From Escherichia coli (GTDB taxonomy: Bacteria; Pseudomonadota; Gammaproteobacteria; Enterobacterales; Enterobacteriaceae), in the NCBI RefSeq assembly GCF_022846255.1, contig NZ_AP025682.1: a DNA stretch of 64,000 nucleotides. One strand, 5' to 3'. Of the stretch, positions 13 through 45,756 are shown in pieces. Each line of letters starts with the position of its first letter. The stretch's first letter is position 1. The notes under the pieces were generated by a model. The model was given only the letters and a program-made list of their open reading frames with translations. It was not told where the DNA came from and did no database searches. The translations under genes and the position numbers were made by a program.

Positions 13-222
13 TTACCAGCGGTAATCATGGCGTTTTTCCCAACTATCAACCTCTTTTTCTGCCTGATCTTTCTGATAACCGTAGCGTTCCTGGATTTTA
101 CCCACTAACTGATCACGTTTTCCTTCAATGATCGTCATATCATCATCGGTCAGTTTGCCCCATTGCTCTTTCACTTTACCTTTAAACTGTTTCCAGTTAC
201 CGCCGGCTTCATCTTTATTCAT
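13..222 (-). CDS. yjbJ: Stress-induced protein YjbJ (CsbD/UPF0337 family), about 69 aa
   Basis: ORF track 13..228; translation MNKDEAGGNWKQFKGKVKEQWGKLTDDDMTIIEGKRDQLVGKIQERYGY matches remembered YjbJ; start set at second Met. Confidence 0.85.
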   Translation of the reverse strand: MNKDEAGGNWKQFKGKVKEQWGKLTDDDMTIIEGKRDQLVGKIQERYGYQKDQAEKEVDSWEKRHDYRW

Positions 223-337
223 AATCAAGACCTCATCGTTAGGTTGTGAATGAGAGTACGTTCACTTTTCTTCTGAACGTGAGATTAAGTGTAGTCAGCA
301 ATTTGGCTTAGGATTATTTATTCAGAATTTTTAACCG

Positions 338-1663
338 TCACGTTGCGACAAACCAGGTATCGTTACGCCAGTGACGCCGCCAGATAGCCGCCAGAGAAAG
401 CCCGCGTAACGCCAGAAAGACGGTTAACGCCAGCCACAAACCATGATTCCCCAGCCACGGCAGCGTAAGGAGCGTCAGCGCAAAACCTGCGGCGGCCACC
501 GCCATACTGTTACGCATTTCGGCGGCACGCGTTGCGCCTATAAACATGCCGTCCAGCAGATAACACCAGACGCCGACCAACGGCAAAATCACCTGCCAGA
601 TAAGATAGCGGTCAGCCAGCTGCTGAATCTGGGTTAACGACGTCAGCAACGCAATGATGTGTTCCCCTGCCAGCAAATAAACCACCGAAAACAGTAACGC
701 TACGATCCCCGACTGGCGGCACGCTGCCCGCCAGACATCCAGCAATTGACTACCGTCGCGCGCACCGTATGCCTGACCGGAATGTGCTTCAACCGCGTAG
801 GCAAAACCATCCAGCGCATAGGCGGTAAAGGTGAGTAGCGTCATCAGAACCGCGTTAACAGCGATAATGTCACTCCCCAGTCGCGCGCCAAGTACGGTGA
901 TCGCGCCGAAACAGAGTTGCAACAACAGCGAGCGCAGCATGATATCGCGGTTAAGCGCCAGCAAGCGACGGAAATTTCCTCGCCAGGCAGTTTTCAGCAT
1001 TTCGCCGGAGATTCCGCGTAGTTTGAGGATTTTACGCACCATTAGCAGACCAATCAGCAATGTTGCATATTCCGCAATAACCGTCGCCAGCGCCGCGCCC
1101 TGCACGTTCATATGCAGCCCCATCACCAGCCAGACATCCAGCACAATGTTGAGGATATTGCCGACCACTAACAAAATTACTGGCGCACGGGCATATTGCA
1201 CGCCGAGTAACCAACCAAGTAATACCAGATTCGCCAGCGACGCCGGTGCGCTTAACCAGCGGATTTCAAGAAAGCGCCGCGCCTGTTCTAGCACCGCTTC
1301 GCTGCCGCCAACAATATGCAGCGCCAGATCGATAATCGGCGTACGCAGCAGCGCAATTAACGCCCCAGCCCCCAACGCCAACAGCAACGGTTGCACCAGC
1401 GCACGGGCTAGTGCCTGAGGATTTTTGGCACCATAAGCCTGCGCAGTCAGCCCGGTGGTGCTCATGCGTAAAAACAGCAACAACATAAAGAGAAAGCTGG
1501 TCGCCGTTGCACCAACCGCCACGCCGCCCAAATAAACCGGACTATCAAGATGACCAATTACCGCCGTATCGACCAGTCCCAGCAACGGAACGGTGATATT
1601 GGAGAAAATCATGGGTAAGGCGAGATGCCAGAGTGCTTTATCAGATGAAGTGAGGAATGCCAT
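338..1663 (-). CDS. dinF: MATE-family efflux protein DinF (SOS-inducible); start codon uncertain
   Basis: ORF track 338..1816; 12-TM MATE-like translation immediately downstream of lexA as in the lexA-dinF operon; start placed at Met of MAFLTSSDKALW, the upstream 51 codons overlap lexA and are probably not coding. Confidence 0.85.
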   Translation of the reverse strand: MAFLTSSDKALWHLALPMIFSNITVPLLGLVDTAVIGHLDSPVYLGGVAVGATATSFLFMLLLFLRMSTTGLTAQAYGAKNPQALARALVQPLLLALGAGALIALLRTPIIDLALHIVGGSEAVLEQARRFLEIRWLSAPASLANLVLLGWLLGVQYARAPVILLVVGNILNIVLDVWLVMGLHMNVQGAALATVIAEYATLLIGLLMVRKILKLRGISGEMLKTAWRGNFRRLLALNRDIMLRSLLLQLCFGAITVLGARLGSDIIAVNAVLMTLLTFTAYALDGFAYAVEAHSGQAYGARDGSQLLDVWRAACRQSGIVALLFSVVYLLAGEHIIALLTSLTQIQQLADRYLIWQVILPLVGVWCYLLDGMFIGATRAAEMRNSMAVAAAGFALTLLTLPWLGNHGLWLALTVFLALRGLSLAAIWRRHWRNDTWFVAT

Positions 1664-1736
1664 GCAGACAAGCCTGATGAAGAGAGATGAAAAAACAAAC
1701 CGCGACGCCAGGCGGCATCGCGGTCTCAGAGATATG

Positions 1737-2345
1737 TTACAGCCAGTCGCCGTTGCGAATAACCCCAACCGCCAGCCCCTCAATGGTGAAGCTCTGCTGA
1801 CGAAGGTCAACGACAATTGGTTTAAACTCGCTGTTTTCTGGCAACAGTTCGACTTTATTGCCCTGTTTTTTCAGGCGTTTAACGGTAACTTCGTCATCAA
1901 TACGTGCGACAACGACCTGACCGTTACGTACATCCTGAGTTTTATGCACTGCCAGCAAATCGCCATCCATAATGCCGATATCTTTCATCGACATCCCGCT
2001 GACGCGCAGCAGGAAATCAGCATTCGGCTTGAACAAGGAAGGATCGACCTGATAATGACCTTCGATATGCTGTTGCGCCAGAAGCGGTTCACCGGCAGCC
2101 ACACGACCTACCAGCGGCAACCCTTCTTCCTCTTCCTGCAATAAACGAATCCCGCGTGATGCGCCGGAAACAATTTCAATAACGCCTTTGCGTGCCAGCG
2201 CCTTCAGATGTTCTTCAGCCGCGTTTGGGGAACGGAACCCCAAACGCTGCGCGATTTCCGCACGCGTCGGCGGCATACCTGTCTGGCTGATGTGATCACG
2301 GATGAGATCAAACACCTCTTGTTGCCTGGCCGTTAACGCTTTCAT
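1737..2345 (-). CDS. lexA: LexA repressor, 202 aa
   Basis: Translation [69 protein letters not shown] with Ser-Lys dyad self-cleavage domain; full-length match to remembered LexA. Confidence 0.97.
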
Positions 2346-2353
2346 TCCGCCCC

Positions 2354-2390
2354 CTGGGTGTATATACAGTTATGCTGTGAGTATATACAG
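2354..2390 (-). promoter_or_regulatory. Two tandem LexA boxes (SOS boxes) in the lexA promoter
   Basis: ctgggtgtatatacag (2354..2369) and ctgtgagtatatacag (2375..2390) fit CTG-N10-CAG with TATATA core, directly upstream of lexA start. Confidence 0.85.
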
Positions 2391-2454
2391 CAAAAGGCGA
2401 TTTTGGAACCATAAACTGCACAATAAACCAGAGATTTATCGAAATCTGGAAGGG

Positions 2455-2823
2455 TTATCCAAAATGCGACCATAACAGGATGCACCAGGTAATCACGGCG
2501 ACGATAATGGCAATCAGCACTGCGGCGGATCCCATATCTTTAGCGCGTCCGGAAAGCTCATGGTATTCAGAGCCAATTCGGTCAACCACAGCTTCGATGG
2601 CGCTATTGAGAATTTCCACAATCATCACCAGCATCACGGAGCTGATAAGCAGCACGCGGGTAATCGCGTCCACATCCAGCCAGCAGGCGATAACCACCGC
2701 TAACAATACCGCTACGCCTTCCTGACGGAATGCCGCTTCGTTGATCCATGCAGCGCGTAAACCTTTCCAGGAATAGCCAGCAGCTTTGATAATTCGGATG
2801 AATCCAGTGGTATTATTGGCCAT
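2455..2823 (-). CDS. dgkA: Diacylglycerol kinase, 122 aa
   Basis: ORF track translation MANNTTGFTRIIKAAGYSWKGLRAAWINEAAFRQE, small 3-TM protein, conserved position between lexA and plsB. Confidence 0.95.
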   Translation of the reverse strand: MANNTTGFIRIIKAAGYSWKGLRAAWINEAAFRQEGVAVLLAVVIACWLDVDAITRVLLISSVMLVMIVEILNSAIEAVVDRIGSEYHELSGRAKDMGSAAVLIAIIVAVITWCILLWSHFG

Positions 2824-2993
2824 TGAAAGAACCTTTTTACATTATGAGCGTCAATATCAGTGTACCGTTAAATCCGATGATTCGGGTTTGCGTAACGCCG
2901 CGCGAAACATGAGCGGATACCACAGAATTTCCCATGACTTTCTGCTATCCTTGCCGCGCATTTGCATTATTAACCAGAGGCTTTACATCGTTT

Positions 2994-5417
2994 ATGTCCG
3001 GCTGGCCACGAATTTACTACAAATTACTGAATTTACCATTAAGCATCCTGGTAAAAAGCAAGTCTATTCCGGCGGATCCTGCCCCGGAACTGGGGCTGGA
3101 TACCTCTCGTCCAATTATGTACGTTTTGCCGTACAACTCGAAAGCTGACTTGCTGACGTTGCGCGCCCAGTGTCTGGCACATGACCTGCCTGACCCGTTA
3201 GAGCCGCTGGAAATCGACGGCACGCTACTGCCGCGCTATGTGTTCATTCACGGCGGGCCGCGTGTGTTCACCTATTACACGCCGAAAGAAGAGTCTATTA
3301 AGCTGTTCCACGACTATCTCGATTTGCACCGCAGCAACCCAAATCTGGATGTGCAGATGGTGCCAGTATCGGTGATGTTTGGTCGCGCGCCGGGGCGTGA
3401 AAAAGGCGAAGTGAACCCGCCGCTGCGTATGCTTAACGGCGTACAGAAATTTTTCGCTGTACTGTGGCTCGGTCGCGACAGTTTTGTGCGTTTCTCGCCG
3501 TCAGTTTCGCTGCGCCGTATGGCGGATGAACACGGCACGGATAAAACTATCGCTCAGAAACTGGCGCGCGTGGCGCGTATGCACTTTGCCCGTCAACGCC
3601 TGGCTGCCGTGGGTCCACGTCTGCCTGCTCGTCAGGATCTGTTTAATAAGCTGCTCGCCTCCCGCGCCATTGCGAAAGCGGTAGAAGATGAAGCGCGCAG
3701 CAAAAAAATCTCCCATGAAAAAGCGCAGCAGAACGCGATTGCGCTGATGGAAGAGATTGCGGCGAATTTCTCTTACGAGATGATCCGCCTGACTGACCGC
3801 ATTCTGGGCTTCACCTGGAACCGACTTTACCAGGGTATCAACGTCCATAACGCCGAGCGCGTTCGCCAGCTGGCCCACGACGGCCATGAGCTAGTGTATG
3901 TGCCTTGCCACCGCAGTCACATGGACTACCTGCTGCTTTCTTACGTGCTGTATCACCAGGGGCTGGTGCCGCCGCATATCGCCGCCGGGATCAACCTGAA
4001 CTTCTGGCCGGCCGGGCCGATTTTCCGCCGTCTGGGGGCGTTCTTTATTCGCCGTACGTTTAAAGGCAATAAACTTTATTCCACCGTTTTCCGTGAGTAT
4101 CTCGGCGAACTGTTCAGCCGTGGTTATTCCGTCGAGTATTTCGTGGAAGGCGGTCGTTCCCGTACGGGGCGTTTGCTGGATCCGAAAACCGGTACGCTAT
4201 CGATGACCATTCAGGCGATGCTGCGTGGCGGCACTCGTCCGATTACGCTGATTCCGATCTATATCGGTTATGAGCACGTCATGGAAGTGGGTACTTACGC
4301 CAAAGAACTGCGCGGTGCGACGAAAGAGAAAGAGAGCCTGCCGCAGATGCTGCGTGGTTTAAGCAAGCTGCGTAATCTCGGTCAGGGGTACGTCAACTTC
4401 GGTGAACCAATGCCGTTGATGACCTACCTTAACCAGCACGTACCAGACTGGCGTGAATCTATCGATCCCATCGAAGCGGTGCGTCCGGCCTGGTTAACGC
4501 CGACGGTCAATAATATTGCTGCCGATCTGATGGTACGCATTAACAACGCAGGCGCGGCAAACGCCATGAACCTGTGCTGTACTGCGCTTCTGGCGTCACG
4601 TCAGCGCTCACTCACCCGCGAGCAGTTAACCGAGCAACTCAACTGCTACCTGGATCTGATGCGCAACGTGCCTTACTCCACGGACTCTACCGTTCCTTCA
4701 GCCAGCGCCAGCGAGCTTATCGATCACGCGCTGCAAATGAACAAGTTTGAAGTCGAGAAAGACACTATCGGCGACATCATCATTCTGCCGCGCGAGCAAG
4801 CGGTGCTGATGACCTACTATCGCAACAACATTGCGCATATGTTGGTGCTGCCTTCTCTGATGGCGGCAATTGTCACCCAGCATCGCCACATCTCCCGCGA
4901 CGTATTGATGGAGCACGTCAATGTGCTTTACCCAATGCTGAAAGCGGAACTGTTCTTGCGCTGGGATCGCGACGAGTTACCGGACGTTATTGATGCGCTG
5001 GCAAATGAGATGCAACGTCAGGGGCTGATTACCCTGCAAGATGATGAGTTGCATATCAACCCGGCGCATTCTCGCACGCTACAGCTGCTGGCCGCAGGCG
5101 CGCGCGAAACGCTGCAACGTTATGCCATCACCTTCTGGCTGTTGAGTGCCAACCCGTCGATCAACCGCGGTACGCTGGAGAAAGAGAGCCGCACCGTCGC
5201 GCAACGTCTCTCCGTGCTGCACGGTATCAACGCGCCGGAGTTCTTCGACAAGGCGGTGTTCAGTTCTCTGGTGCTGACACTGCGTGATGAAGGGTATATC
5301 AGCGATAGCGGCGACGCCGAACCGGCAGAAACGATGAAGGTGTATCAGTTGCTGGCGGAGTTGATTACATCAGACGTGCGTTTGACGATTGAGAGTGCGA
5401 CGCAGGGCGAAGGGTAA
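2994..5417 (+). CDS. plsB: Glycerol-3-phosphate acyltransferase PlsB, 807 aa
   Basis: ORF track 2934..5417; start moved to ATG at 2994 ([29 protein letters not shown]); HXXXXD acyltransferase motif region ([17 protein letters not shown]) present. Confidence 0.95.
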
Positions 5418-5429
5418 TCAGTGAGAATT

Positions 5430-5527
5430 GCCGGATGCGACGCAAACGCCTTATTCGGCCTACCATGATCTGCAAATTCAATAAATTGCGATATGTTGTA
5501 GGCCTGAGAAGCGCAGCGCATCAGGCA
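5430..5527. repeat. REP/BIME palindromic units in plsB-ubiA spacer
   Basis: gccggatgcgacgcaaacgccttattcggcctac and gtaggcctgagaagcgcagcgcatcaggca match REP consensus (GCCGGATGCGGCG...CTTATCCGGCCTAC). Confidence 0.7.
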
Positions 5528-5537
5528 ACCCAGAAGA

Positions 5538-5566
5538 AAGCCGGATGATCATCCGGCTTTTTTACA
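5538..5566 (+). terminator. Rho-independent terminator (hairpin aaagccggatgatcatccggc followed by T-run)
   Basis: Perfect GC-rich palindrome followed by tttttt downstream of plsB; could also act on the convergent ubiCA transcript. Confidence 0.6.
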
Positions 5567-5569
5567 TCA

Positions 5570-6442
5570 TCAGAAATGCCAGTAACTCATTGCCAGCCCT
5601 AAAAACAGTACCAGACCAACATAGTTATTATTCATAAATGCTTTAAAGCAGGCTTCACGCTCGCGGTTGGCAATCAGTTTTTGTTGATAAACAAACAGCG
5701 CGCCAGCTACCAGAATTGACCAGTAATATCCCCAGCCTAAGCCATTTAACTCACCGATGATCGCCATCAGCGCTAGTACGCCAATCTGCAAAATACCAAT
5801 AATCAATTTATCGTATTGGCCGAACAGGATTGCGGTGGATTTAATGCCAATCTTCACATCATCATCGCGGTCAACCATCGCATACTGCGTGTCGTAAGCC
5901 ACCGCCCAGAGAATATTGGCGAGGAACATTAACCAGCAACTCAATGGCACCGACTCACTCACAGCGGCAAAAGCCATTGGAATCGACCAGCCAAACGCCG
6001 CGCCCAGCACCACTTGCGGTAGATGGGTATACCGCTTCATAAACGGGTACACCCACGCCAGCGCCAGCGCGGCAATCGACAACAGAATAGTCATCGTATT
6101 CAGCGTCAGCACCAGTAAAAATGAAATCAGTACCAGCACTACAAACAGCGCGCGCGCCTCTTTCTCCGTTACCGCGCCGCTGGGAAGTGGTCGGTTCGCC
6201 GTGCGCTTAACATGACCATCAAACTTGCGGTCAGCATAATCATTCACCACGCAACCAGCAGCGCGCATCAGCCAGACGCCCGCGACAAACACCGCCAGGA
6301 TCCAGAGCTGGGGAACGCCCGGTGTCGCCACCCACAACGCCCATAATGTTGGCCAGAGCAGCAGTAACGCGCCAATTGGCTTATCCGTACGCATTAAGCG
6401 ATGAAACGCCAGCAGCTTATTCTGCGTCAGACTCCACTCCAT
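5570..6442 (-). CDS. ubiA: 4-hydroxybenzoate octaprenyltransferase UbiA, 290 aa
   Basis: Translation [37 protein letters not shown] with NDxxDxxxD prenyltransferase motif ([11 protein letters not shown]); multi-TM. Confidence 0.95.
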
Positions 6443-6454
6443 ATTTTTTTCCTC

Positions 6455-6952
6455 TTAGTACAACGGTGACGCCGGTAAAAACAGTTCTGTTAGCAACAGC
6501 GGTTTACCGCTTAATCGCAGGCGGGAACGTCGCCCCCACAGTCCGGCATCACGGCCTATCTCAATAAAGTCCCGGGTTAATGTCGATGATGTGAACAGAT
6601 AGCGTCCTAACGGCGTTTTACCTAATTTTTGTAACGCCAGCTCCGGCCCGCTTAACGTTGACACAGGAACGACGGTACGACCGGCAAGCCACGGTTCACC
6701 ATCGGCACATAACAAAATTTCACGTAACCAGTAACGAGACTCTTTCGGCAGCAGTGGCAGTTCTTCGGGGATTTCATTCTGCTCGACAAACCCTTCGCGG
6801 ATCATCGTCACGCTCACCGTTTTTCCCTGCTGTTCAAAACGTTTTGTCATGGAATCTTCCAGCAACAGCCAGTCGAGCAGTTGCGGCTCCAGGGCAGGGA
6901 TCTCTGTAAAATAGCGCAGCGCACGCAGTTGCGTTAACGCGGGGTGTGACAT
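6455..6952 (-). CDS. ubiC: Chorismate pyruvate-lyase UbiC, 165 aa
   Basis: ORF track 6455..7057; start moved to [44 protein letters not shown]; ubiC-ubiA operon arrangement. Confidence 0.9.
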
Positions 6953-7130
6953 GCCGAACTCTCCGTTACATAACGTAAAGGCATTGTATCGCAGAAAAAT
7001 ATTTACGGGAGATGTAAAGCAAATTAAGTGAACTAATGCGCAACAAAAACGCAACAATAGTACAGGAGGAGAAAAAAAGGTGCGCCAGGAGACGCACCAG
7101 TTGTTGCAAAATCAGCACTGTGGGGCGTAA

Positions 7131-8051
7131 TTACCCCTTGCCTTTTACACTGCTGATAAAGGTGGAACGGGCAGATGTCGACCCCAGGCGTTCAGCTTCA
7201 TCAAGCAGTTTTAACGCCTTATCAACATCACCTTTCGCGACAGCGTTTTTGATCGCGGTATTAAAATAACTTTCCGTGTCGTTGAGCATCGGCTCGCTTT
7301 TCTTCACCGGTGCCGGAGCGGGTGCAGCCACAGCTGGTGCCGCCGTGTTGCCTACCGTAACCGGAGCTGGAGCGGAAGAACCAAATAGTGGTCCTACCAA
7401 CACGCTGGAGCTGGAGTTCGTTTTCACTTTCAGTTTCAGTAAGCCATCGGTGGTATGACGAGCAACCGGATCGGGAATATCCGGGATCGAGTTACCGACG
7501 CCTTTGGCATAGGCTTTAGCCGGGTCGAGCAGTTGAGTCGTCTGCTGGAGATCTTTTTCCGTGGTAAAGACCAGAACATAAAGTTTTTGCTGCCCCAACG
7601 CCGGTGTCAGGCGCATAACGCCTTCCAGCCGATCTGCACTCATCACGCCGGGTTCCTGGTAGGTGAAATAACTGCTGGGGAAGAAGGCTGATGGGGTCAT
7701 GTTCTGATCAAGAATCAGCACATTCGGCGCAAATACGCTGGTTTGTTTGTTCACTTCGCTGGTCAGCGTCAGTGTCAGTTCACCAATGTTTGCCGGGACG
7801 CTGTACGCAGCAACCGGACCACTGATGCCAGGGACATTCAGTTGTTGGCCGCCGGTCGACAGTTGAGTAGTCTGGGTTTTAGATTGATCGACCGGTGTCC
7901 AGGTGAGTTGTTGCAGCGCGGCAGATGGAATGGCTGGCGCGTCGCTGGTGTTTTGCGGTACGTAGTTAACATCGGCAAGGCTGATTCCAGGTGCGCTTGC
8001 CAGCAACCCTGCTGATAAACAGAGAGCGATGAGACTTTTATTCATTTTCAT
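7131..8051 (-). CDS. malM: Maltose operon periplasmic protein MalM, about 306 aa
   Basis: ORF track 7131..8060; signal peptide MKMNKSLIALCLSAGLLASAPGISLA; last gene of malK-lamB-malM operon. Confidence 0.9.
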   Translation of the reverse strand: MKMNKSLIALCLSAGLLASAPGISLADVNYVPQNTSDAPAIPSAALQQLTWTPVDQSKTQTTQLSTGGQQLNVPGISGPVAAYSVPANIGELTLTLTSEVNKQTSVFAPNVLILDQNMTPSAFFPSSYFTYQEPGVMSADRLEGVMRLTPALGQQKLYVLVFTTEKDLQQTTQLLDPAKAYAKGVGNSIPDIPDPVARHTTDGLLKLKVKTNSSSSVLVGPLFGSSAPAPVTVGNTAAPAVAAPAPAPVKKSEPMLNDTESYFNTAIKNAVAKGDVDKALKLLDEAERLGSTSARSTFISSVKGKG

Positions 8052-8146
8052 TGTTTTCACCTCAAAATCTGGAGCTCAGCGGTAGCCAGGCAATAGCGCG
8101 CTAAACCCGATAATCAGAGGGGCTTTCGCCCCTTAAAGCTGTTTTT

Positions 8147-8272
<126 letters not shown>

Positions 8273-8282
8273 GGTTTTGCTA

Positions 8283-9653
<1,371 letters not shown>

Positions 9654-14968: not shown

Positions 14969-15039
14969 AGATGTTGTTCTGCCAATGTTATGCCGCTGCA
15001 CCCTCAACTTACGTTATCCCAACTTGTGACTGTTATTCG

Positions 15040-15061
15040 GCGCTCCACGGAGCGCCTTTTT
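15040..15061 (+). terminator. Rho-independent terminator after malG (ggcgctccacggagcgcc + T7)
   Basis: Perfect 7-bp stem GC hairpin followed by ttttttt at 15055..15061, lying in the 94-bp convergent spacer between malG and psiE. Confidence 0.65.
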
Positions 15062-25602: not shown

Positions 25603-26550
25603 ATGGAAAACAGTGACGATATCCGTTTGATTGTGAAGATTGCCCAACTCTATTACGAACAGGATATGACGCAGGCGCAAATTGCGCGCGAACTGGGTAT
25701 TTACCGCACCACCATCAGCCGCTTGCTTAAACGAGGCCGCGATCAGGGAATTGTCACCATCGCCATCAACTATGACTACAACGAAAATCTCTGGCTGGAG
25801 CAGCAAGTGAAGCAAAAGTTTGGCCTGAAAGACGTTGTGGTGGTGTCAGGAAATGATGAGGATGAAGATACTCAACTGGCGATGATGGGGTTACACGGCG
25901 CGCAACTGCTGGATCGCTTGCTGGAACCTGGCGATATTGTCGGTTTTTCCTGGGGCCGCGCGGTGAGCGCACTGGTTGAAAACTTGCCGCAGGCGGGGCA
26001 ATCGCGGCAGTTAATTTGCGTGCCGATTATTGGCGGCCCGTCCGGTAAACTCGAAAGCCGCTATCACGTAAACACATTAACCTACAGCGCGGCAGCGAAG
26101 CTGAAAGGGGAATCGCATCTCGCGGATTTTCCGGCTCTGCTGGATAACCCATTAATTCGTAATGGGATCATGCAGTCTCAGCACTTTAAAACCATCTCTG
26201 CCTACTGGGATAATCTGGATGTCGCCCTGGTGGGAATTGGCTCACCGGCCATTCGCGACGGCGCTAACTGGCATGCGTTTTATGGTGGTGAAGAGAGTGA
26301 CGACCTGAATGCCCGCCAGGTTGCTGGCGATATTTGCTCGCGCTTTTTTGATATTCACGGCGCAATGGTTGAAACGAATATGAGCGAAAAAACACTCTCT
26401 ATCGAAATGAATAAATTAAAGCAGGCACGGTATTCCATTGGCATTGCCATGAGCGAAGAAAAATACAGCGGAATTGTTGGTGCACTGCGTGGAAAATATA
26501 TTAATTGTCTGGTAACGAATAGCAGCACAGCTGAACTATTACTGAAATAA
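25603..26550 (+). CDS. sorC: SorC-family transcriptional regulator of the L-sorbose operon, 315 aa
   Basis: ORF track 25519..26550; ATG at 25603 preceded by caggagg; N-terminal HTH (MTQAQIARELGIYRTTISRLLKRGR) plus sugar-phosphate-binding domain; heads a sorCDFBAME-like gene set. Confidence 0.85.
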   Translation: MENSDDIRLIVKIAQLYYEQDMTQAQIARELGIYRTTISRLLKRGRDQGIVTIAINYDYNENLWLEQQVKQKFGLKDVVVVSGNDEDEDTQLAMMGLHGAQLLDRLLEPGDIVGFSWGRAVSALVENLPQAGQSRQLICVPIIGGPSGKLESRYHVNTLTYSAAAKLKGESHLADFPALLDNPLIRNGIMQSQHFKTISAYWDNLDVALVGIGSPAIRDGANWHAFYGGEESDDLNARQVAGDICSRFFDIHGAMVETNMSEKTLSIEMNKLKQARYSIGIAMSEEKYSGIVGALRGKYINCLVTNSSTAELLLK

Positions 26551-26619
26551 AAATCTTCCCGATGTTTACCGTAATAAAAATTACGGCGGGTCCCTATTAT
26601 CTAAAATCAGGAGTCTGTT

Positions 26620-27426
26620 ATGCAAACGTGGTTAAATTTGCAGGATAAAATCATTATTGTCACCGGTGGCGCATCCGGTATTGGTCTGGCGATTGTAGAG
26701 GAATTATTAGCACAAGGCGCAAACGTACAGATGGTCGATATTCACGGTGGCGATGGTCAATATGAAGGTCATAAAGGCTATCAGTTTTGGCCGACCGATA
26801 TTTCCAGCGCCAAAGAGGTAAATCATACGGTAGCGGAAATTATCCAGCGTTTTGGTCGCATCGACGGTCTGGTCAATAACGCCGGGGTCAATTTCCCGCG
26901 TCTGCTGATCGACGAGAAAGCGCCTGCCGGGCAGTATGAACTCAACGAAGCTGCATTCGAAAAAATGGTCAATATCAACCAGAAAGGCGTTTTTCTGATG
27001 TCGCAGGCGGTGGCGCGACAGATGGTCAAACAACATGATGGCGTGATTGTGAATGTTTCCTCAGAAAGTGGGCTGGAAGGCTCAGAAGGCCAAAGCTGTT
27101 ACGCCGCGACCAAAGCCGCGCTCAATAGCTTCACGCGCTCCTGGTCGAAAGAGCTGGGTAAGCACGGTATCCGTGTGGTCGGTATCGCGCCAGGGATTCT
27201 GGAAAAAACAGGACTGCGCACGCCGGAATATGAAGAAGCGCTGGCGTGGACGCGCAATATCACCGTCGAGCAGCTGCGTGAAGGCTATACCAAAAATTCC
27301 ATTCCTATTGGGCGCGCCGGAAGATTAGCAGAAGTGGCTGATTTTGTTTGTTATCTGCTGTCTGAACGCGCCAGCTATATCACCGGAGTAACCACTAACA
27401 TTGCGGGCGGCAAAACGCGCGGCTAA
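26620..27426 (+). CDS. sorD: Sorbitol-6-phosphate 2-dehydrogenase-like short-chain dehydrogenase (SorD), 268 aa
   Basis: SDR Rossmann motif TGGASGIGLA and catalytic YxxxK (SCYAATKAALNSF); position after sorC. Confidence 0.8.
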   Translation: MQTWLNLQDKIIIVTGGASGIGLAIVEELLAQGANVQMVDIHGGDGQYEGHKGYQFWPTDISSAKEVNHTVAEIIQRFGRIDGLVNNAGVNFPRLLIDEKAPAGQYELNEAAFEKMVNINQKGVFLMSQAVARQMVKQHDGVIVNVSSESGLEGSEGQSCYAATKAALNSFTRSWSKELGKHGIRVVGIAPGILEKTGLRTPEYEEALAWTRNITVEQLREGYTKNSIPIGRAGRLAEVADFVCYLLSERASYITGVTTNIAGGKTRG

Positions 27427-27435
27427 GGAGGCTTT

Positions 27436-27843
27436 ATGGTCAACGCCATTTTTTGTGCGCATGGCAAATTAGCTTGCGCCATGCTGGAATCGGTTCAGAT
27501 GGTGTACGGCGATGCCAGGGTCGAGGCCGTTGAATTTGTGCCCGGCGAGAACGCCGGAGACATTGTGGCAAAGCTGGAGAAGTTAGTAAGCATTCACAAT
27601 CAAGATAAGTGGCTAATCGCCGTGGATTTACAGTGCGGCAGCCCGTGGAATGCGGCAGCGATGCTTGCGATGCGCAATCCTCGTCTGCGGGTAATCAGCG
27701 GCCTTTCTCTGCCGCTGGCGCTCGAACTGGTTGATAACCAGGACAGCATGAATGTTGATGAACTGTGTGAACACCTGACGCAAATCGCAAAGCAAACCTG
27801 CGTCGTCTGGAGACAGGTGGCAACAGCAGAGGAGGATTTCTGA
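27436..27843 (+). CDS. sorF: PTS mannose-family EIIA component for L-sorbose (SorF), 135 aa
   Basis: N-terminal AHGKLA region typical of EIIA-Man phosphohistidine domain; size and operon position. Confidence 0.85.
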   Translation: MVNAIFCAHGKLACAMLESVQMVYGDARVEAVEFVPGENAGDIVAKLEKLVSIHNQDKWLIAVDLQCGSPWNAAAMLAMRNPRLRVISGLSLPLALELVDNQDSMNVDELCEHLTQIAKQTCVVWRQVATAEEDF

Positions 27844-28337
27844 TGAACATTACGCTCGCCCGCATTGATGACCGCCTGATCCACGGCCAGGTCACTACCG
27901 TCTGGTCTAAAGTGGCTAACGCCCAACGCATTATTATCTGCAATGACGAAGTTTATAACGATGAAGTTCGCCGGACATTATTGCGTCAGGCTGCGCCACC
28001 GGGAATGAAGGTTAACGTGGTCAATATTGAAAAAGCCGTCGCGGTTTATCACAACCCGCAATATCAGGACGAAACCGTTTTTTATCTTTTCACTCGCCCA
28101 CAAGATGCCTTAGCAATGGTTCGCCAGGGGGTAAAAATAGGTACCCTGAATATTGGCGGTATGGCCTGGCGTCCTGGTAAGAAACAGTTAACCAAAGCAG
28201 TTTCATTAGATGACGATGATATTAACGCATTTCATGAGTTAAATAATCTTGGCGTCATACTGGATTTACGCGTCGTAGCGTCAGATCCCTCAATCAATAT
28301 TATCGACAAAATAAACGAACAGTTAATCGCAAATTAA
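27843..28337 (+). CDS. sorB: PTS mannose-family EIIB component for L-sorbose (SorB), 164 aa
   Basis: Conserved N-terminus RIDDRLIHGQV of EIIB-Man family; start overlaps sorF stop (ATGA). Confidence 0.85.
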   Translation: MNITLARIDDRLIHGQVTTVWSKVANAQRIIICNDEVYNDEVRRTLLRQAAPPGMKVNVVNIEKAVAVYHNPQYQDETVFYLFTRPQDALAMVRQGVKIGTLNIGGMAWRPGKKQLTKAVSLDDDDINAFHELNNLGVILDLRVVASDPSINIIDKINEQLIAN

Positions 28338-28402
28338 ATAATAGCGCCTGTGTACATATGCTTTAACAGGCAGGGATGACGACACTTAAAAGGTGACAAA
28401 TT

Positions 28403-29200
28403 ATGGAAATAAGTACCCTACAAATCATTGCTATATTTCTTTTTTCCTGTATTGCCGGAATGGGCAGCGTGCTGGATGAATTTCAGACTCATCGTCCGTT
28501 AATTGCCTGTACGGTGATTGGCTTAATTCTCGGTGATTTAAAAACCGGAATTATGCTCGGTGGTACGCTGGAATTGATAGCTCTCGGCTGGATGAACGTC
28601 GGCGCGGCGCAATCTCCGGATTCTGCACTCGCCAGCATAATCTCCGCCATTCTGGTTATCGTTGGTCAGCAAAGCATCGCCACCGGAATCGCCATCGCGT
28701 TGCCTGTGGCTGCGGCAGGCCAGGTGCTGACGGTGTTTGCCCGTACCATCACCGTAGTGTTCCAGCACGCGGCGGATAAAGCAGCGGAAGAAGCACGGTT
28801 TCGCACTCTCGATATTCTGCATGTCTCCGCGCTTGGCGTGCAGGCACTGCGCGTTGCTATTCCGGCACTGATTGTCTCGCTGTTCGTCAGCGCTGATATG
28901 GTGAGCAATATGCTGAGCGCCATTCCCGAATTTGTGACCCGTGGGCTGCAGATTGCTGGCGGTTTTATCGTGGTGGTCGGTTACGCCATGGTGCTTCGCA
29001 TGATGGGCGTGAAATATTTGATGCCTTTCTTTTTCCTCGGTTTCCTCGCAGGTGGCTACCTCGATCTCAGTCTGCTGGCGTTCGGTGGCGTCGGCGTGAT
29101 CATGGCCCTGCTCTACATCCAGTTAAATCCACAGTGGCGTAAAGCTGAACCACATCCCCAGACCACCACTATCACCGCCCTTGACCAACTTGATGATTAA
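28403..29200 (+). CDS. sorA: PTS mannose-family EIIC component for L-sorbose (SorA), 265 aa
   Basis: Multi-TM permease with EIIC-Man-like length, between EIIB and EIID genes. Confidence 0.85.
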   Translation: MEISTLQIIAIFLFSCIAGMGSVLDEFQTHRPLIACTVIGLILGDLKTGIMLGGTLELIALGWMNVGAAQSPDSALASIISAILVIVGQQSIATGIAIALPVAAAGQVLTVFARTITVVFQHAADKAAEEARFRTLDILHVSALGVQALRVAIPALIVSLFVSADMVSNMLSAIPEFVTRGLQIAGGFIVVVGYAMVLRMMGVKYLMPFFFLGFLAGGYLDLSLLAFGGVGVIMALLYIQLNPQWRKAEPHPQTTTITALDQLDD

Positions 29201-29210
29201 CGGAGCCATC

Positions 29211-30035
29211 ATGGAACAGAGAAAAATTACACGCAGCGATCTGGTGAGCATGTTTCTGCGCTCCAACCTGCAACAGGCGTCCTTTAACTTTGAACGTATT
29301 CACGGGCTGGGTTTTTGCTACGACATGATCCCCGCCATCAAGCGACTTTACCCATTAAAAGAGGATCAGGTTGCGGCGCTCAGGCGACACCTGGTGTTCT
29401 TCAATACCACGCCAGCCGTATGTGGCCCGGTCATCGGCGTCACTGCCGCCATGGAAGAGGCGCGGGCCAACGGCGCGGAAATTGATGACGGTACCATTAA
29501 CGGCATCAAAGTCGGTCTGATGGGACCATTGGCAGGAGTTGGCGATCCACTGGTCTGGGGAACGCTGCGCCCGATTACCGCCGCGCTCGGCGCATCTCTG
29601 GCACTTTCGGGCAACATTCTCGGCCCGCTGCTGTTTTTCTTTATTTTCAACGCGGTGCGTCTGGCGATGAAGTGGTATGGCCTACAACTCGGCTTTCGCA
29701 AAGGGGTGAATATCGTCAGCGATATGGGCGGTAATTTGCTGCAAAAACTCACCGAAGGCGCGTCGATTCTCGGACTGTTTGTGATGGGCGTGCTGGTGAC
29801 CAAATGGACGTCAATCAACGTACCGTTGGTGGTTTCACAAACGCATGCCGCCGATGGCTCCACCGTCACCATGACCGTGCAGAACATTCTCGACCAACTT
29901 TGCCCTGGTTTGCTGGCGCTCGGTCTGACGCTACTGATGGTTCGTCTGCTCAACAAAAAAATTAACCCGGTATGGCTGATTTTCGCCCTGTTTGGCTTAG
30001 GGATTATCGGCAATGCGCTGGGCTTCCTGTCCTGA
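29211..30035 (+). CDS. sorM: PTS mannose-family EIID component for L-sorbose (SorM), 274 aa
   Basis: ORF track 29181..30035; ATG at 29211 after cggag SD; EIID-Man-like hydrophilic N-terminus then TM segments. Confidence 0.85.
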   Translation: MEQRKITRSDLVSMFLRSNLQQASFNFERIHGLGFCYDMIPAIKRLYPLKEDQVAALRRHLVFFNTTPAVCGPVIGVTAAMEEARANGAEIDDGTINGIKVGLMGPLAGVGDPLVWGTLRPITAALGASLALSGNILGPLLFFFIFNAVRLAMKWYGLQLGFRKGVNIVSDMGGNLLQKLTEGASILGLFVMGVLVTKWTSINVPLVVSQTHAADGSTVTMTVQNILDQLCPGLLALGLTLLMVRLLNKKINPVWLIFALFGLGIIGNALGFLS

Positions 30036-30086
30036 TTCTTCGCCCCGGCACGACTGCCGGGGCCATCGCTCAACATGAGGTGGTTT

Positions 30087-31316
30087 ATGAAAACAACAGC
30101 TCTGCGTCTTTATGGCAAACGTGACCTGCGTCTGGAAACCTTTGACCTTCCTGAAATGCAGGAGGATGAAATCCTCGCAACGGTGGTCACTGACAGCCTG
30201 TGCCTCTCTTCCTGGAAAGAGGCCAATCTGGGTGAAAACCATAAAAAAGTACCCGACGATGTGGCGACCAATCCCATCATCATCGGCCACGAATTTTGCG
30301 GCGATATTCTGGCCGTGGGTAAAAAGTGGCAGCACAAATTCCAGCCGGGTCAGCGTTATGTGATTCAGGCCAACCTGCAACTCCCCGACCGCCCGGATTG
30401 CCCCGGCTACTCCTTCCCGTGGGTAGGCGGCGAAGCGACGCATGTGGTTATTCCCAACGAGGTCATGGAACATGATTGCCTGCTGGCATACGACGGCGAA
30501 ACCTATTTTGAAGGCTCGCTGGTTGAACCGCTTTCCTGCGTGATTGGCGCGTTCAACGCCAACTATCATCTTCAGGAAGGTAGTTATAACCACACGATGG
30601 GGATTCGCCCGCAAGGGCGCACGCTGATACTCGGCGGCACCGGCCCGATGGGGCTGCTGGCGATTGATTATGCGCTACATGGACCCGTTAACCCGTCGCT
30701 GCTCGTCATTACCGATACCGACAACGACAAATTGAGTTATGCACGCAAGCACTATCCATCAGAACCACAAACACTGATTCATTATCTCAATGCCGCCGAT
30801 GCAGCATTTGATACGTTAATGGCACTGAGTGGCGGTCACGGCTTCGATGATATTTTCGTCTTTGTGCCTAATGAAGGACTGGTGACTCTCGCCTCTTCCT
30901 TGCTGGCGACAGATGGTTGTCTGAATTTCTTCGCCGGACCGCAGGATAAGCACTTCAGCGCGCCAATTAATTTCTACGATGTGCATTATGCATTTACCCA
31001 CTACGTGGGCACGTCAGGCGGCAATACCGACGACATGCGCGCAGCGGTCAAATTGATTGAAGAGAAAAAAGTGCAGGCCGCAAAAGTGGTAACACATATT
31101 CTTGGGCTGAATGCCGCGGGCGAAACCACGCTTGAATTGCCTGCCGTCGGCGGCGGCAAAAAGCTGGTGTATACCGGGAAATACCTGCCGCTGACGTCAC
31201 TCACGCAGATTCAGGATCAAGCACTGGCGGTGATTCTGGCGCATCATCAGGGGATCTGGTCCGGTGAGGCGGAGCAATACCTGCTCGCCCATGCAGAGGC
31301 AATTTCCCATGATTAA
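30087..31316 (+). CDS. sorE: Sorbose-1-phosphate reductase-like zinc-dependent alcohol dehydrogenase family protein (SorE), 409 aa
   Basis: ORF track 30075..31316; ATG at 30087 after gaggtgg; MDR/zinc-ADH-like sequence (GHEFCGDIL, Rossmann GGTGPMG). Confidence 0.8.
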   Translation: MKTTALRLYGKRDLRLETFDLPEMQEDEILATVVTDSLCLSSWKEANLGENHKKVPDDVATNPIIIGHEFCGDILAVGKKWQHKFQPGQRYVIQANLQLPDRPDCPGYSFPWVGGEATHVVIPNEVMEHDCLLAYDGETYFEGSLVEPLSCVIGAFNANYHLQEGSYNHTMGIRPQGRTLILGGTGPMGLLAIDYALHGPVNPSLLVITDTDNDKLSYARKHYPSEPQTLIHYLNAADAAFDTLMALSGGHGFDDIFVFVPNEGLVTLASSLLATDGCLNFFAGPQDKHFSAPINFYDVHYAFTHYVGTSGGNTDDMRAAVKLIEEKKVQAAKVVTHILGLNAAGETTLELPAVGGGKKLVYTGKYLPLTSLTQIQDQALAVILAHHQGIWSGEAEQYLLAHAEAISHD

Positions 31317-31475
31317 TCGCGCTACTTAACTCTGCATGTCGCTGGCTGGTCGCCGCGGCAACTTCGCGACCTGATGTGCGGCTGATTGCTGAAGCGGCAC
31401 AATGTGCACGAGAAGGATAAAAAAACATCAGCGCCTTAAGGGGCGCTCAAATTGGTGGCAAAGTGCACATTGTTT

Positions 31476-34108: not shown

Positions 34109-34327
34109 GAGTTCAGGTTCTCCTTATCGTTATATGTTCCTGAAGCAATTGAATGACCAAAGGACCGGAAACACGCTGACTGGCATCTTTACTGTGCCTT
34201 TTGACCTTCGTTTTTCCGGCTAAGATTATTCCAGCCTGTTTCCAGTATAAGTGTTTCATATTAATAAAGAGACAGGGCACTCATTGAGCGCCCTGTTTGT
34301 TGTAAGGAAAAGTGACAGATTTGTGAA

Positions 34328-38011
<3,684 letters not shown>

Positions 38012-39035: not shown

Positions 39036-39051
39036 CTTTTTCGCCTCTGAT

Positions 39052-45634: not shown

Positions 45635-45679
45635 GCTGCCCCCTATCGTGCTATCGTGCCTGCGTAAGCTGGAGCAGAC

Positions 45680-45744
45680 GCGCCAGCGTCGCAGCCGGCC
45701 TTTTTCTGCACCAGCGCAAAAAGGCCATCCTGACGGATGGCCTT
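45680..45744. terminator. Convergent terminator region between yjaB and rrfE (rrn operon terminator on minus strand; T-run after GC-rich segment on plus strand)
   Basis: Minus-strand hairpin aaggccatccgtcaggatggcctt followed by tttttgcgc, immediately 3' of 5S rRNA; plus strand ccggcc + ttttt after yjaB. Confidence 0.55.
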
Positions 45745-45756
45745 CTGCTTAATTTG

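Follow-up and report, generated by a model that had tools for sequence, protein, structure and literature searches.

The malM-ubiC spacer of the window (the whole 64-kb stretch of E. coli DNA that was analysed) is an ordinary ancestral intergenic region, and its biology is already known. The arrangement malK-lamB-malM, terminator, ubiC promoter and ubiCA is very probably the ancestral one, and the yjbI segment was in all likelihood gained by other lineages and never by that of the window. The direction of inference at this locus is thereby corrected: K-12 is the derived form and should not be taken as the reference. Using K-12 as the yardstick produces "missing genes" that are really gains of the K-12 lineage.

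Organization of the malM-ubiC spacer

The window encodes ubiC (chorismate lyase, 165 aa) at 6455..6952 and malM (maltose operon periplasmic protein, 306 aa) at 7131..8051, both on the minus strand; the ATG of ubiC is at 6952 and the stop codon of malM begins at 7131. These limits were obtained from the ORF list and cross-checked on the RefSeq record of strain 95-3322, which is annotated for both genes and matches the window at 100% identity from 5500 to 9000. The uninterrupted, ancestral form of the spacer covers 6953..7130, and its length of 178 bp is exactly that given in the initial annotation. The orthologous flanks are lamB (8283-9623, minus strand), ubiA (5570-6442, minus strand) and plsB (plus strand). 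With malM and ubiC adjacent on one strand, this is the ancestral malK-lamB-malM / ubiCA junction. The UbiC and MalM proteins are 98% and 99% identical to their K-12 counterparts, respectively.

The absence of yjbI from this spacer, also noted in the initial annotation, was confirmed; being a presence/absence difference, it calls for no test against chance. The ORF list contains only two ORFs within the 178 bp (50 and 77 aa), which are of chance length, and no ORF with pentapeptide repeats or a SopA central domain at 6953-7130. A tblastn search of the whole 64-kb window with the K-12 YjbI protein found no homolog (best E = 0.48), and a blastn search of the same 64 kb with the insert DNA described below gave no match.

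Read on the minus strand from the malM stop, the spacer contains a terminator, a variable linker of ~15 bp, the TGTTGCG repeats, the TTCTGCGATACAATGCC block, GGAGA, and the ATG of ubiC. The intrinsic terminator of the malK-lamB-malM operon (7072..7098, minus strand) was identified by the terminator scan, RNA folding, and conservation. Its hairpin, GGTGCGTC-TCCT-GGCGCACC, lies at 7079-7098 and is followed by seven T residues at 7072-7078. According to the terminator scan, the hairpin begins 32 nt past the malM stop codon, with a stem of 8 pairs (6 of them G-C) and a 4-nt loop. The sequence has the features of a Rho-independent terminator, namely a G+C-rich stem-loop and a U-tract, located 3' of the malM stop on the coding strand. 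The RNA fold of an 81-nt region that includes the hairpin has an energy of -19.6 kcal/mol (z = -2.4). In the spacer alignment, the hairpin is kept in Escherichia, Salmonella, and Citrobacter; Enterobacter and Klebsiella have a variant hairpin.

The linker agtacaggaggag (13 bp, 7059..7071) is the least conserved stretch of the alignment. It is also the empty site defined by the BLAST breakpoints, where K-12-type genomes have 1866 bp. The remaining part, the ubiC upstream region (6953..7058, minus strand), is collinear with K-12 up to 7058 and is conserved from Escherichia to Klebsiella. It contains, all on the minus strand, two TGTTGCG direct repeats 11 bp apart (7039-7045 and 7050-7056), a TACAAT -10-like hexamer (6983-6988) within the invariant TTCTGCGATACAATGCC block, and a GGAGA Shine-Dalgarno sequence (6960-6964). 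A consensus sigma-70 promoter scan of the spacer returned nothing at its threshold, so it is from conservation alone that we infer these 106 bp to be the putative ubiCA promoter and leader. A literature search on this promoter turned up nothing beyond a citation of Kwon et al. 2005. An Rfam scan of the spacer found nothing credible.

The K-12 state and its breakpoints

The K-12 state was read from two records, a dam/dcm derivative and an MG1655-derived strain. The gene order is ubiC, a pseudogene of 1581 bp annotated as "SopA family protein, frameshifted", and malM. In K-12, malM is not immediately adjacent to ubiC, and the spacer is 2031 bp versus 178 bp in the window. The largest ORF of the pseudogene is yjbI (442 aa, 1329 bp), which bears out the statement in the initial annotation that K-12 carries a yjbI gene or pseudogene of roughly 1.3 kb at this position. 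A published table of K-12 "promoter islands" lists both "malM(+)/yjbI(+)" and "yjbI(+)" (PMC3661553), and the malM/yjbI order is thus confirmed from the literature.

BLAST alignment of the window with the K-12 locus L001 gave two collinear blocks. The first block pairs window 6400-7058 with L001 1401-2059 (98.2% identity), and the second pairs window 7072-7700 with L001 3926-4554 (98.7%). The two sequences differ by a single indel, with 13 bp in the window (7059-7071; breakpoints 7058/7072) against 1866 bp in K-12 (breakpoints 2059/3926). The K-12 insert has a GC content of 34.4% versus 52.2% in its flanks, and its signature is therefore that of a horizontally acquired segment. The ubiC-proximal 115 bp of the insert (L001:2060-2175), unlike the remainder, are not AT-rich. 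Shortly past the stop codon of the pseudogene, this part contains an inverted repeat with a 12-bp stem, CATCACCGTCCA...GGAACGGTGATG, possibly the terminator of that gene or a remnant of other DNA.

K-12 keeps both the terminator and the ubiC-proximal block unchanged, one on each side of the insert. Control of ubiCA is therefore probably the same in the short and long forms. The short form may be a useful clean control for examining whether ubiCA expression is influenced by the AT-rich yjbI promoter island (PMC3661553).

Polarity of the change

For the outgroup survey, one genome per species was searched with UbiC, which gave 80 loci; these were then searched by tblastn with MalM, UbiC, and YjbI. 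Both genes share a contig in 79 other-species loci, and in every one of these ubiC directly follows malM. The gap between the two genes is 120-194 bp in 76 of the 79, a range that includes the 178 bp of the window. Species with the short gap include E. albertii, E. whittamii, three cryptic or other Escherichia, Salmonella enterica subsp. arizonae and diarizonae, and many Citrobacter, Enterobacter, Klebsiella, Raoultella, and Kosakonia. Three loci fall outside this range, namely a Pluralibacter MAG (272 bp), C. koseri (407 bp, an overestimate since the MalM alignment stops at residue 239), and Enterobacter cloacae DSM 26481 (2971 bp, with a different insert). YjbI had no tblastn match in any of the 80 loci. 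Furthermore, the linker of the window, CTCCTCCTGTACTAT, aligns with that of E. albertii, CTTCTCCTGTGCCAT, and with other Escherichia linkers, and homology is continuous through the 13 bp. The outgroup gaps and this continuity across the linker indicate that the short spacer is the ancestral state and the K-12 state a gain.

Distribution of the two forms in E. coli

The 178-bp spacer is contiguous (at least 80% of the spacer query covered) in 1126 of 5425 complete E. coli genomes, about a fifth. Among the matches listed, all 47 long-form spacers break at query base 106, which corresponds to window 7058. The intact O157:H7 gene (526 aa) was used as the query for a sensitive DNA search, and yjbI was found in 4269 of 5426 complete E. 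coli genomes (~79%), one copy each and invariably in this position, including O157:H7, O103, and O104:H4. Most copies are 90-95% identical to the O157 allele, and those of K-12 derivatives are 93.4% identical. The gene is not K-12-specific in the sense of being restricted to that strain. The initial annotation, which had counted yjbI among the K-12-specific genes absent from this DNA, was mistaken in both scope and direction, the short state being ancestral.

Five long-form alleles of diverse strains (K-12, O157:H7, O103, and two others) were compared. In all five, the insert is exactly 1866 bp with the same boundaries and junction sequences. This shared length and these shared junctions point to one ancient insertion event.

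The insert-encoded SopA-family protein

In Pfam, the ORF of the K-12 insert matches the central domain of SopA (6e-56) as well as three families of pentapeptide repeats. The intact O157:H7 protein of 526 aa aligns to the SopA/NleL structures PDB 2qza, 2qyu, 3sy2, and 3nb2 in the central region only, and these alignments stop at about chain residue 431-440 of roughly 620. The insert protein thus seems not to extend into the C-terminal part of the SopA/NleL constructs, which is presumably the site of the catalytic lobe. Protein cluster sources name the gene only as "SopA family protein". The O157 ortholog of yjbI may be EspX4; a literature search on that name for the ortholog returned only virulence-gene lists or unrelated papers.

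The gene is frameshifted in K-12 and O103 RM8385, and intact in O157:H7 and two other strains. It is ~93% identical between K-12 and O157:H7 (L001:2176-3756, L085:3723-5303, and L088:601-2181), and the core genes flanking it are 97-98% identical to the window. These features suggest fast or relaxed evolution with repeated decay.

Other junctions and mosaicism of the window

The initial annotation had also joined the short malM-ubiC spacer with three other short junctions into one consistent pattern, which was not sustained. The psiE-malG junction (14969-15061, 93 bp) has no xylE, the aceK-iclR junction (39036-39051, 16 bp) has no arpA, and the junction between yjaB and a 5S rRNA gene (45635-45750) has no yjaA. 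Like the yjbI indel, these are presence/absence differences from K-12 and common polymorphisms within the same 64 kb, each with its own frequency. The empty junction is contiguous in 1786 (xylE), 1308 (arpA), and at least 2815 (yjaA) of 5425 E. coli genomes, compared with the 1126 lacking yjbI. These frequencies differ; the four absences are separate events, neither one coherent set nor a block of K-12-specific genes.

The genes arpA and yjaA are markers of the Clermont phylotyping scheme. By that scheme, an arpA-negative, yjaA-negative genotype presumably corresponds to B2/F/G-type lineages; the further markers chuA and TspE4.C2 lie outside the window. The empty malM-ubiC site and the absence of arpA and yjaA place the strain outside the A/B1/E-type lineages. 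yjaA is present in strain 95-3322, otherwise the closest finished genome, and absent from the window.

Several further differences were observed. At 25604-31317, between pepE and rluF, the window has a sorbose PTS and sorE operon with its regulator, assigned by collinearity with the 95-3322 annotation; K-12 presumably has no such operon. At 34142-34332, the window is without two hypothetical genes (~0.8 kb) that 95-3322 has between metH and yjbB. Positions 1-32000 are mosaic relative to 95-3322, with 1-2 differences per 2 kb at 6-10 kb and 32-50 at 12-18 kb, and this region looks recombined. For 28-50 kb, the best full-coverage match among 5426 complete genomes is 98.1%.

Evolutionary scenario and alternatives

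The proposed scenario is as follows. The hairpin and U-tract would end transcription of the maltose operon and prevent read-through into ubiCA, and the ~106 bp beside ubiC would provide that gene with a promoter and a ribosome-binding site of its own. In an ancestor shared by most other lineages of E. coli (K-12, O157:H7, O103, O104, and others), a single foreign segment, AT-rich and 1866 bp long, would have landed in the 13-15-bp linker between terminator and promoter. This insert would have brought the SopA-family pentapeptide-repeat gene, called yjbI in K-12, as an ancient horizontal gain. The arpA-negative, yjaA-negative lineage of the window would never have received the insertion; K-12 would have something extra, and the window would be missing nothing.

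That the segment was never gained, as opposed to being removed when recombination restored the short form, is something we infer. The arpA-less (1308) and yjbI-less (1126) genome sets differ by ~180 genomes, so presence and absence do not follow one clean split, and some recombination or loss somewhere is likely. This inequality, which implies some homoplasy or recombination, would also suit a secondary loss, in which the lineage of the window once had yjbI and lost it, whether through an exact excision or because homologous recombination brought in a short allele from another strain. Recombination is frequent in E. coli, and the window is itself mosaic against 95-3322 (identical at 5.5-9 kb, and 1.6-2.5% different at 12-18 kb). 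However, every outgroup has the short form, with homology running uninterrupted through the linker, and the window retains no remnant of the insert. A spontaneous deletion would need to restore the ancestral linker exactly, and an allele replacement by recombination, though conceivable, would still import the ancestral allele. Secondary loss is therefore quite improbable.

It is less probable still that the spacer hides a further element with a function, for instance a small RNA or a small protein, that stands in for yjbI or compensates for its absence. In favor of this is the strong conservation upstream of ubiC, including the two TGTTGCG repeats, but there is no Rfam match and the ORFs are of chance length. 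The conserved blocks are also unchanged in K-12 beside the insert; they therefore have nothing to do with whether yjbI is there, and they fit a promoter or operator. Nothing was found in support of an assembly artefact, in which the source genome would have been collapsed or wrongly joined here, and it is refuted by the 1126 E. coli genomes in which the 178-bp spacer is contiguous, the identical form occurring in hundreds of independently finished ones, and by the short spacer being normal in other genera.

How the segment entered the linker was approached through the long form. A repeat search detected neither terminal inverted repeats nor long direct repeats on either side of the insert, and no recombinase gene was found. 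Both long-form junctions carry an imperfect linker-like sequence, TTCCWGGGAT / TTCATGCGAT, with 8 of 10 positions identical in K-12 and 7 of 10 in O157. They may derive from a decayed target-site duplication, but are too degenerate for one to be called.

The malM-ubiC spacer of Enterobacter cloacae DSM 26481 (NZ_CP056117.1, L031:3033-6000) holds an unrelated insert of 2.97 kb. It contains an immunity gene of the Tli4 type (Tli4_N, E = 5e-44; Tli4_C, E = 3e-40) together with three adjacent ORFs that look like a fragmented type VI lipase effector; one of the three has a PGAP1-like lipase motif. This is an insertion independent of yjbI in the same spacer, and suggests a recurrent insertion site. 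A broader idea is that, in the Enterobacteriaceae, cargo encoding secreted toxins or effectors has repeatedly entered the 13-15-bp linker, possibly through a specific mechanism, with the window showing the site unoccupied; this is rather improbable.

Comparison with related loci and proteins

SopA of Salmonella and NleL of EHEC are type III effectors, HECT-like E3 ligases with a pentapeptide beta-helix. The insert protein of K-12 and O157 shares with them the SopA central domain and the pentapeptide repeats; the window encodes no such protein.

Among the closest counterparts of the window spacer are those of other Enterobacteriaceae, which are gene-free and mostly ~175-190 bp long (120 bp in three taxa). 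They have the terminator and T-run, the linker, the TGTTGCG repeats, and the GATACAAT box in the same order, and differ from the window by point substitutions only, mostly in the linker. The malM-yjbI-ubiC region of K-12 also has the same flanking genes and orientation, the same malM terminator, and the same 106 bp upstream of ubiC, and is collinear with the window at 98-99% identity. K-12 differs in having 1866 bp of 34%-GC DNA with a pseudogene where the window has 13 bp.
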